Of a stretch of DNA of 64,000 nucleotides, positions 59,906-64,000 are shown piece after piece (position 1 is the first letter of the stretch; each line of letters starts with the position of its first letter). The notes beneath the pieces were generated by a model that ran no database searches, had not been told where the DNA came from, and saw only the letters and a program-made list of their open reading frames with translations. This DNA is from Shigella phage sb4, in the sequence record PQ666542, one strand, 5' to 3'. The translations under genes were made by a program, and so were the position numbers.

Positions 59906-59935
59906 ATTATAACACAACACGAGGGACTTGTAAAC
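59906..59935 (-). promoter_or_regulatory. T4-type early promoter
   Basis: Minus GTTTAC at 59935-59930, 18 nt spacer, TATAAT at 59911-59906. Confidence 0.5.
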
Positions 59936-61986
59936 TACATCTTGAACTTTTTAGACATTCCGTTGATGTTAACCAAAGAAGCCAAGATTTGAGAAACTTC
60001 GTTTTCCTCTTCTTTTGATTCTTCTTCAAGGAATTGATTAAACCCAGCCATTGGACGAACTTCACCAGTTTCCATTAGATGGTCGCCATCATATACCGAT
60101 TCTTCTAATTGTTCAGAATGAGGAACGATTGTGCCTTCGATTAGATACTTGTTATAAGCAGTTTCTTTCATCATGTATGTACTCACTTTATTAATCTTCA
60201 GCAAAATTCCACGCGGTGGAATTACTTCAGCTTCTGATGGAAATCCTGATAAATGACCTGGAACGATAACTTTAATTCGCTCAGCTCCTTTTATTACCAT
60301 GCCTACACTAGTTTCAGCATCTTAATTAGCATATGCATAATGACTACCCATATGCATTATATCTTCAGCATCAACAGAACCTTCTCCTTCACCAGAAAAT
60401 ACTGCGCCGGAATCATCTAGAGCCATATAGTTTTTACCATGCTCACCGAAGAGATTTGGTTTAAGCGATGTTGATACGAAGTTCTTAAAATAGAACATTT
60501 TATTTTCAATATTATGACGTAAAGTTTTAAAAGTAACTTCTTGTCCACGATAAAGCGTAGTTCCTGGAGGAAGAACTGAACCTTTGGCAAAGGCAGAATC
60601 CATTGTCTCTATGTGTTTAATAGCTCGTTCCATGTATTCTTCACGGGTAGAATCTGGTTTACCCAAGAGGAACGAGTTCATTTCAACATATGAATCTGCA
60701 CAATAATCTTCAATTACATCAGACTCGGCCTGAGTTAATCCTTTTGGAGTTACTTCGGTGCTTGCGTATTCATATGCCTGAGCAGCAGATTCATTAATCA
60801 ATTTATAAATGCTATTCATGACAAATTGAATAATAGCTACCTTTTCGTCTGGTGTGGCTTTAGAACCTTTAACTAAATCATTGATAATTTTCTTAATAAC
60901 ATCAAAGCTATTAGAAATATTAATGTCAGCGAGATCGCTTAAAATTTTATCAGTTTTATAATCAAAAAATTCTTTATTCTTTAAATATTATTGAGAACCT
61001 TGATGTGTTATATCGCTCTGCAGTCTGATAGACGGATCACGTAAACGTGCATGGGCCAATGCAATATGATTTCGGAAGCTTTCTAGTTCATAATCGTTAG
61101 ATTTAAAACGAGAAGCACTTCTCATACCACCGATAGCTCCTTTGCTGAAGTTTGAACCAATCTGAATAACGCCAGAGTTCATTGGTCCTTCTGCTTTATA
61201 TACCGGAACTTTAGATTCAAACTCTTGATATTTCTTAGCGGCGAAGCTATCACCCTGAAGTGAAGCATCGACAGTAGAATATTGAGCTTGTGCTGCTAAT
61301 CGACGACTAATTTTAGTTTTCTGAATAACAGCTTGATCCGTGCGCTTATCATTTTCTAAAGCAATAGAAGCAGCAACAGCTTTAGGAACAGCATTACCTG
61401 TTTTAACATCTACATAAACATCACCAACCTTTGATTCAACTTTTGTGAATAACTCAGTTGAAATAGGAGGTACACCTGGAATGTCTTCTAAATTGGCGTT
61501 TTTACGGTAAACCATAATATATGCATACTTTTTATCGTAATCCCAGATTTCCTTTAAAAGAACATATCGACCTGCTCCTTTAGTACGTACGAAACGGTCA
61601 GCAATAACTTGCATTTGACGAGCAGCGCCATTTGTTTTACTTTTTAGTACGCGGAATAGGCATGCGTCAATTTTATACTGTTTCATTGTTTGAAGAGCAG
61701 TATCAAAAACCGCATTAATGACACCAATTGGATTTCCACCCAAGTTTTTAAGTTTAACTAATGATAGTTTCTCATTAACACCTATCATTACGATATGCAT
61801 CATTTTATCGCCTGGCTTAACGTTTTTATTTGTATCACCGCCAGAAGTGTATGTACAAAATCTAAATCCAGGAAGCACACTTTCTTCGCCGGATTGAATA
61901 GCAAAAATTTGAGGTATTTTATGCTTAGGATTTAAGTTAACAACCGGCGCCGAAGCGCCGTCAAATAATTCTGTAATAAGTTCCAT
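59935..61986 (-). pseudogene. alt: Alt ADP-ribosyltransferase interrupted by two TAA codons
   Basis: 683-codon frame (T4 Alt 682 aa); three track ORFs in one frame; stops at 60988-60990 and 60322-60324; ART motifs TLYRGQ and FVSTSL. Confidence 0.85.
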
Positions 61987-61989
61987 GAT

Positions 61990-64000
61990 TTATCCTTGAA
62001 CGAACTTGTAAGGCATGTTTGTAATATCTATGCAAGACGCAATAATTCCAAGAGATGATTCTACTTTTTGTTTAACATTTGATGAAACAAATGTTGCAAA
62101 GTCAACTCTGTCTTCTATTTCAATATCACCTGTCATTGCAACTACTTCACCAGTTTCCATTAGACGGTCACCGTCATAAATTACTGATTCGGTGAGTTCT
62201 TCCGTAGTCATAACTTCAGCTTGAATAAGCTTGTTGTTAGTTTTAACTGTTCCATCATTGTAAGATGCGTCGGTTATTTTACTAACTTTGACCATTAATC
62301 CACGTGGCAAAATGACTTCCATTTCATTTGAATGCGCTAAACTTCCACCTGGTAAAACAACGTTGACTTTATCAGCCCCAGTAATAACCCATCCAATTCC
62401 AACTAAATTATCGCTAGAATTAACAAGCCCTTCATCATTTTTATCGACAGAAATATTTAGACGCTTTTCGTCTGGTAGAACCCCTACAGCTGAATCAGTC
62501 ATCCAAGTACCAAAAATGTTTGGATATAATGATGTTGATACAAAATTTCTAAAAAAAAAAACTCGATTTTTTACCATTGCTTCAGATATTGAAGGTAACA
62601 TTCTCTGTGAACGATATAAAGTGATACCCTTTGGCAGTCGATCACCATTTTTAAAGGCTGAATCTAAATTATCGATGGCTTGGTCTATTTCTGGTGCTGT
62701 TAAAATACTTGTACGTTCATCTAGATTATATAATCCCAAAAGAGCATTATCCATGTCTACATATCCTGAACCTACGTATTCAGGAATTCCACGTTTTTGT
62801 GCCGGTGTGTACTTAGACGGATCTTTATTTTCGACTATAGAATGCAATGACCATCCAACGGTAAGAGCATATCCACGTATTTCTCTTCGAATAATCTTTG
62901 TTTTTATTGCATTCCAAGAATTTTGTACTAACTCATTCGCAGCATCTTGATTTAAATGCGAATGATTGTTAATATTTCTTTCTAACCAAGCACATTTATA
63001 TTTTTCTAAATTATCATCGACTATAGAAGCAATAGTTTATAAAGTTTTTATTGAAGTAATATATTCTTTTCGTAATCTTTATAAAGATTTATTTTTTATT
63101 TATGTATTAACATCAGATTATTTATCTTCAGGAATTATAGAAGCTTCTCTGAATGCCATTCCAGCTGTAACACTATTAAGAGCATTCTCTAATGCAAATC
63201 CTGAAGTAGAAATAACAGTTAATTCATTAGCATCAGAAATTAAAGGCGCGTCAGCGGGTTTATTTAATTCTGCCGCTGACGCCTCAAATTTTTGAAACAT
63301 TGGTGTTTCAAATCTGGAAGATTCTAACGATTGACTTTGTGCAATTGCTCTACGGGAAATTTTAACTTTAACGATTACAGCTTGGTCAGAACGTTTATCA
63401 TTTTCTTGTGCAATAGATGCTGCAATTGCCTCATTTTTAGTTACTTGAGCTCCGGTATCTTTATTGATATATACATCGCCGACCTTCGATTCAACTTTAG
63501 TAAAGAGCTCGGTACTAATTTCCGGAACTCCTGGAATGTCTTCTAATGATACATTTTTGCGATGTTTAAGAATATATGCATACTTTTTATCATAGTCCCA
63601 GAGTTCCTTAAGAAGGACGTATCTGCCACCTGAACGACTACGGATAAGTCTATCAGCAATAAGTTGAATTTGACGAGCTTGACCAGCAGTTTTAGACTTA
63701 AGAATACGGAGCATGCAGGCATCAATTTTATATTGACGCATTGTTTGCATTGCAACAGTAAAAACTGAATTGATATAATTAATTGGGCTTGGACCGAGAC
63801 CTTTTAATTTAGCAATTGAACCTTTGGCAGTTAATGTAAAAGGAACAATATGCATCATTTAATCGCCCATCTTTAAATCGCGATTAGTATCACCTCCAGA
63901 TGTGTAGGTACATAAACGAAAGCCTGGTTGTTCAATTGCGTCATCAACATGAACTGAAAAAATTTGCGGTATTTTCTTCTTTGGATTTAAGTTTGTAATA
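61990..64000 (-). pseudogene. Second alt-like ADP-ribosyltransferase paralog, 5' end outside window, at least five in-frame TAA codons
   Basis: Homologous to downstream alt across N-terminal and ART domains (ITLYRSQ, FVSTSL); stops at 63859-63861, 63118-63120, 63100-63102, 63079-63081, 63037-63039. Confidence 0.75.

Follow-up and report, generated by a model that had tools for sequence, protein, structure and literature searches.

The stretch of DNA analysed here, 64,000 nt of Shigella phage sb4 (PQ666542; hereafter the window), is by its open reading frames (ORFs) and by megablast a segment of a Tequatrovirus (T4-like) genome, and it ends on two adjacent minus-strand genes that resemble T4 alt, the gene of an injected ADP-ribosyltransferase (ART). 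We find that these two genes are very probably the standard tandem alt pair of T-even phages, an ordinary feature, and that the stop codons within them most likely stem from unselected substitution noise spread over the whole window. An earlier note, made from the sequence without searches, had described two Alt-like genes with a conserved N-terminal region and an ART domain, clearly diverged from one another and interrupted by at least five stops in the upstream copy and two in the downstream copy. This description is borne out, and translation gives exactly five and two. What the note had missed is that such pairs are common, annotated and published, with T4 Alt corresponding to the upstream gene and T4 alt.-1/alt.-2 to a remnant of the downstream one, and that the stops are one sample of substitutions that also hit essential genes; since they sample window-wide noise, nothing specific to alt can be learned from them.

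Both copies match the ADP-ribosyltransferase exoenzyme family PF03496 (ADPrib_exo_Tox; curated cut-off, 23.4 bits), the downstream copy with 67.9 bits (E = 1e-18) and the upstream copy with 102.6 bits (E = 2e-29). Their orthologues in Shigella phage pSs-1 align along their whole length with phrog_802 ('Alt-like RNA polymerase ADP-ribosyltransferase'; E = 1e-256 and 1e-263). The YRGQ/YRSQ and FVSTSL motifs singled out beforehand were located in both copies and are followed by an ExE motif (EAEV and EMEV), such that the R, S-T-S and E-x-E elements stand in the correct order, and none of their residues is lost to an internal stop or to a change private to the window. The locus, between gene 54/alt.-3 and alt.1/gene 30, is conserved as well: its gp54 and alt.-3 side is seen in the window, which ends before the gene 30 side. 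An uninterrupted reading frame is found in neither window copy. By motifs and profile matches, both genes are assigned to the Alt family of arginine-type mono-ADP-ribosyltransferases (R-S-E type). NAD-dependent ADP-ribosyl transfer to arginine is established in the literature for T4 Alt and is predicted for the window genes. The Alt/VIP2 family is part of the RSE clade (PMC9503650). Searched by sequence against solved structures, the downstream paralogue gave no match at E ≤ 0.01.

Homology searches with both copies gave each a distinct identity. In pSs-1, the upstream copy is 96% identical in amino acids to T4 Alt over its full length, and the downstream copy shares 41-42% of its residues, again over its full length, with both the upstream copy and T4 Alt. 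By homology, the upstream gene is thus the orthologue of T4 Alt and the downstream gene an old, diverged paralogue. The earlier note had likewise called the copies diverged paralogues and no recent duplicate. The intact pSs-1 paralogues share 41% of their residues overall and 67.5% over residues 1-238; they are most divergent in the middle region (23.5%, residues 239-410) and, within the ART half (38%), between the STS and ExE motifs, where identity falls to a minimum of 20%. T4 Alt (gpAlt, NP_049811) and the upstream gene are alike in their position by alt.1/gene 30, in length, in the R/STS/ExE motifs and, as seen in relatives, in the MELITELFD start, whereas the window copy lacks the first ~15 codons and carries its five TAA codons, which look like artefacts, along with several missense changes private to it. 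The second Alt of pSs-1 (YP_009111014; alt_1 in sb2, with the pair also in 6phi13, PMC13600099) is the orthologue of the downstream gene, at the same locus and with the same architecture; the two are equal in length save for a 6-nt indel, and the whole 4.5-kb region is 97% identical in nucleotides. Here the window copy differs by its two internal TAA codons and by scattered private missense changes, for example an L>P replacement right after the ExE motif (SEAEVIPPRG vs SEAEVILPRG).

T4 itself has lost most of the downstream gene. Its record annotates alt.-1 and alt.-2 as products of a duplication that involved the first part of alt, and these two are 95% and 98% identical in amino acids to the downstream paralogue over its residues 1-56 and 62-116, respectively. 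T4 keeps 352 nt of the 5' end of the paralogue plus 80 nt spanning its 3' end and the spacer past the stop; ~1.7 kb of the interior, ART domain included, is gone, whereas the gene is full length here and in ~400 other phage records. From these alignments, we identify T4 alt.-1/alt.-2 as a deletion remnant of the downstream paralogue.

Relatives keep both genes. The 4.5-kb alt region has a megablast match in 503 phage records, with a single match covering at least 80% of the query in 120 of them, and the downstream paralogue is found at 90% amino acid identity or more in 401 phage records, among them the classical isolate RB3. Two intact alt genes of 684-685 aa occupy the same locus in pSs-1 and in six other phages (sb2, Ec_MI-02, KNP5, YwIITB1, W143 and HP3). 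Same-locus tandem pairs also occur in other genera, in Dhakavirus IME281 and Gaprivervirus SP18 (annotated alta/altb), as well as in Acinetobacter phage Ac42 (annotated 'alt gene duplication') and Aeromonas phage L9-6. The tandem pair is already known: hundreds of public genomes have it annotated (alt_1/alt_2, alta/altb, the Ac42 note), and it has been discussed in print, where a 2026 paper describes 'two paralogous Alt-like proteins' of a Tequatrovirus that are 43% identical and suggests that their targets diverge (PMC13600099).

A phylogeny of the two copies against alt, modA and modB had been proposed, and its alt part could be carried through. In a neighbour-joining tree, the window upstream copy clusters with T4 Alt (bootstrap 100 for this grouping) and, more widely, with the IME281 upstream copy and SP18 altb (bootstrap 98), and the window downstream copy with the IME281 downstream copy and SP18 alta (bootstrap 100). 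Since these two clades are common to Tequatrovirus, Dhakavirus and Gaprivervirus, the duplication is older than the split of these Tevenvirinae genera. The Ac42 and L9-6 copies each pair inside their own genome, which suggests independent duplications or gene conversion; these pairs lie at 3486-7461 in Ac42 and at 1549-5426 in L9-6. In SP18 (locus 3495-7439), the order of the two clades is reversed relative to Tequatrovirus. The Mod part of the tree could not be built: by BLAST, ModA and ModB have no detectable resemblance to the two alt copies (E > 0.4), and PF03496 does not match them either, so that a joint phylogeny is impossible. The T4 ModA and ModB proteins are likewise R-S-E-type ARTs of phage origin whose targets are host proteins of transcription and translation (PMC9503650), but they are ~200 aa long, produced after infection and not packaged, and by this comparison neither window alt gene is Mod-like.

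Ratios of nonsynonymous to synonymous substitution rates (dN/dS) among relatives are 0.03-0.09 in the downstream gene and 0-0.2 in the upstream one, indicating strong purifying selection on both, and these values argue that both copies are functional in relatives. Between the window copies and relatives the ratio is 0.06-0.13.

The stops have to be read against the rest of the window. The window aligns with pSs-1 (NC_025829.1) as a single collinear high-scoring segment pair of 63,999 nt, at 97.3% identity with 1,654 mismatches and 19 short gaps, and in a megablast of phage records the closest one reaches only 97-98% identity. Codon-by-codon comparison with pSs-1 revealed 40 in-frame stops in 22 of the 78 genes, all from single substitutions. 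Essential baseplate, neck, terminase and vertex genes are among those affected, the stop-bearing genes including gp5, gp6, gp7, gp10, gp12, gp13, gp14, gp15, gp16, gp24, gp26, gp27, gp28 and gp48, and also the lysozyme, RNA ligase 2 and uvsW genes (example sites are listed in the table). A phage carrying such lesions could not form virions.

The substitutions themselves lack any mark of selection. Between 55.5 and 64 kb, 91 sites are private, meaning that eight relatives differ from the window, and the relatives are invariant among themselves at all but 4 of the 91. These private substitutions have a transition/transversion ratio of 0.69 and fall almost evenly on the three codon positions (29:20:38), in contrast to the natural variation shared with relatives (ratio 3.0-3.3, mainly third position). 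Over the whole window, 367 private transversions were called against three relatives, mostly towards A or T and with no coding-strand asymmetry of note; 52 are synonymous, 251 missense and 34 nonsense, where random placement of the same spectrum yields 56, 278 and 32. Because the classes match random placement, these changes were never exposed to selection. The total of stops also agrees with simulation (40 observed vs ~44), and a deliberate or selective enrichment of stops, considered as a separate possibility, is unsupported by either comparison. Indels contribute little: in 55.5-64 kb the window differs from pSs-1 by substitutions only, plus the in-frame 6-nt indel, and the sole frameshifting indel inside a gene is a single-base deletion at ~52256, in the gp25 gene and 14 nt short of its end, which alters the last codons and extends the ORF (52217..52639, minus strand) to 140 aa vs 132 aa in pSs-1.

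The alt stops have the same character. Compared with pSs-1, all seven are single-base changes from GAA or AAA to TAA, and all seven alleles are absent from the eight relatives. Four of them form a cluster in the upstream copy, where the codons concerned are GAA in all four relatives aligned, and belong to a group of nine private G/C-to-A/T changes (the four stops and five more) within ~180 nt. DNA patterns containing three or four of the stop changes had no exact match in viral, metagenome or genome contigs, and none of the exact window proteins searched for (the 332-aa downstream alt fragment, gp29 and Alt.-3) was present in the protein index. Altogether, the stops are best read as a sequence artefact rather than as pseudogenisation, and the noise layer most likely originates in how the sequence was produced and not in evolution. 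Were the noise changes reverted, both alt genes would be ordinary intact orthologues. As a side observation, the record of Shigella phage sb1 (PQ666539.1) likewise has gp29, gp48 and the downstream alt in pieces (216-6493), which means that broken-frame relatives of this phage are present in databases.

Several observations weigh against reading the locus as an ordinary pair overlaid by noise. The alt pair holds seven of the 40 stops vs 2.6 expected (Poisson p≈0.02), and upstream alt alone five vs 1.2 expected (p≈0.009), with a private-transversion density of 11.4/kb, twice the window mean of 5.7/kb. The noise is also not uniform: private transversions are clustered (66 gaps of 10 nt or less vs 20.5 expected), and a stretch of ~4.7 kb with nine small genes (4423-9170) is noise-free and identical to pSs-1; this gap and the clusters elsewhere are unexplained by a simple uniform error process. 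Finally, what may be said (below) of how the downstream paralogue is packaged and injected, and of its target range, is inferred from its similarity to Alt. The slight stop excess is not regarded as evidence of decay specific to alt, because other genes are similarly dense in private transversions (rnlB 13.9, gp13 12.9, gp14 11.7 and gp28 15.3 per kb), the noise is clustered and the dN/dS of the window copies is still low.

The excess and the density in the upstream copy do lend something to the alternative that both genes are genuine pseudogenes, a dispensable Alt having been lost through nonsense mutations in this lineage, as do the non-essential role of Alt in assembly (PMC9958956) and the true loss of most of the downstream copy in T4. 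We nevertheless consider this alternative improbable. Stops of this kind also interrupt twenty other genes, many of which a T4-type virion cannot do without, so that the stops cannot be taken as a trace of selection; both alt genes are free of frameshifts and of any deletion other than the 6-nt in-frame indel; the share of stops among private transversions is that expected at random; and neither the low dN/dS of the window copies nor the absence of the seven stop alleles from relatives fits with decay in this lineage.

Still less probable, to the point of being negligible, is that the stops are real and read through, by suppression or by a reassigned stop codon, and the genes fully expressed. 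Such a scheme could draw on the preponderance of TAA among the internal stops (27 of 40, all seven alt stops included) and on the 10 tRNA genes of the phage (Arg, Asn, Tyr, Met, Thr, Ser, Pro, Gly, Leu and Gln; cluster at 9565-10396, minus strand). Yet TAG and TGA occur internally too, TAA and TAG double as true terminators at orthologous gene ends, and in relatives the interrupted codons specify eleven residues rather than one (E, K, Q, Y, L, W, C, G, S and others). The changes also act as unselected noise. None of the 10 tRNA genes has a stop-reading anticodon, and a suppressor tRNA or recoding is effectively refuted by these ordinary anticodons and the use of all three stops. That the two sets of ORFs are collinear pieces of a single gene broken up by errors, the outcome that the earlier note had named as fatal to its proposal, has nothing beyond the presence of internal stops in its favour and is ruled out, since each copy amounts to a full-length Alt of ~684 aa, reaching from the start region as far as the C-terminus (the first ~15 codons of the upstream copy lying beyond the window end) with its own ART domain, each has a separately annotated intact orthologue in at least 7 relatives, and only substitutions and the one in-frame indel separate the two genes from those of pSs-1.

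With the stops set aside as noise, what the downstream paralogue does can be considered from its relatives. In T4, ~40 copies of gpAlt are part of the scaffolding core of the prohead, in which the protein is non-essential, and the gp21 protease removes a short N-terminal peptide from it (PMC9958956). It is injected with the DNA and ADP-ribosylates the alpha subunit of host RNA polymerase and other proteins, favouring T4 early transcription (PMC9958956, PMC9503650). The downstream gene keeps an Alt-like N-terminal region of ~240 residues with the MELITELFD start, together with an intact R-S-ExE ART domain. In relatives, this start includes an I-x-E site in both paralogues, a type of site that gp21 cleaves. 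Through the common N-terminal region, the downstream paralogue may thus be packaged and ejected like Alt, and its diverged ART surface might give it an overlapping or a different range of host targets; the earlier suggestion that the second paralogue may have a different target is plausible. We tentatively propose, as a possibility somewhat short of even, that the downstream paralogue is a second head-packaged, injected ART with host targets of its own, conserved in hundreds of T-even phages, where purifying selection acts on it, and deleted in T4, a deletion owing to which it was never studied in the model phage. If true, the T4-based picture of the first seconds of infection omits one effector. 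The stops in the window contribute nothing to this proposal. As a discovery the locus carries little weight; its practical value is as a warning on this window, in which, given ~0.6% unselected substitutions and 40 false nonsense codons, any call of a pseudogene, split gene or degraded copy is to be taken as an artefact until shown otherwise.

At the right-hand end of the window, gp29, gp48 and gp54 on the plus strand are followed by alt.-3 and the two alt genes on the minus strand, and the window stops short of alt.1 and gene 30. The alt genes lie in one minus-strand frame, 3 nt apart: the ATG of the downstream gene stands 3 nt past the TAA of the upstream gene, inside CAAGGATAAATCATG, and the last codons of upstream alt (CAAGGATAA) provide a Shine-Dalgarno-like AAGGA for downstream alt. 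The late-promoter motif TATAAATA has no occurrence in 59.5-64 kb, and so none between the alt genes; any promoter of the pair must therefore sit upstream of the window end, and the two genes are probably co-transcribed. The coordinates of these features are collected in the table.

Table. Position of the alt genes, their motifs and stops, and neighbouring or comparable features in the window
Feature	Position	Strand	Remarks
Downstream alt paralogue	59935..61986	-	683 codons; start MELITELFD; 2 internal TAA
Upstream alt (T4 alt orthologue by homology)	61990 to beyond 64000	-	first ~15 codons past window end; 5 internal TAA
Downstream alt, ART motifs	YRGQ 60541-52; FVSTSL 60463-80; EAEV 60223-34	-	
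Upstream alt, ART motifs	YRSQ 62605-16; FVSTSL 62527-44; EMEV 62314-25	-	
Downstream alt, internal TAA	60988-60990; 60322-60324	-	
Upstream alt, internal TAA	63859-61; 63118-20; 63100-02; 63079-81; 63037-39	-	
Four-stop cluster of upstream alt	63037..63120	-	AT-rich, Glu/Lys-rich stretch; each GAA>TAA
alt.-3 homologue	59584..59874	-	96 aa; DUF5498; phrog_1739; intact; next gene downstream of the pair; context only, outside the Alt pair
gp54	58590..59555	+	
Example stop sites in other parts of the window	17404; 19480; 20661; 26064; 28645; 31266; 32934; 33722; 45247; 46145-46769; 49616-50183; 55115-55488; 58234		

The alt.-3 of pSs-1 is 100% identical to T4 Alt.-3, and T4 mutants with a C-terminal extension of Alt.-3 evade the CmdTAC defence system (PMC11618068). 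Elsewhere in the window, three overlapping late-promoter-like copies of TATAAATA (TATAAATATAAATATAAATA) lie upstream of uvsW (49477-49496, plus strand) and were created by the insertion of 6 nt that pSs-1 lacks. A 205-aa ORF located between the genes for tail sheath and tail tube (37780-38397, plus strand) has no Pfam match and is absent from Ec_MI-02, where the alignment breaks; it is 100% identical to pSs-1 gp180 and may be a mobile insertion.

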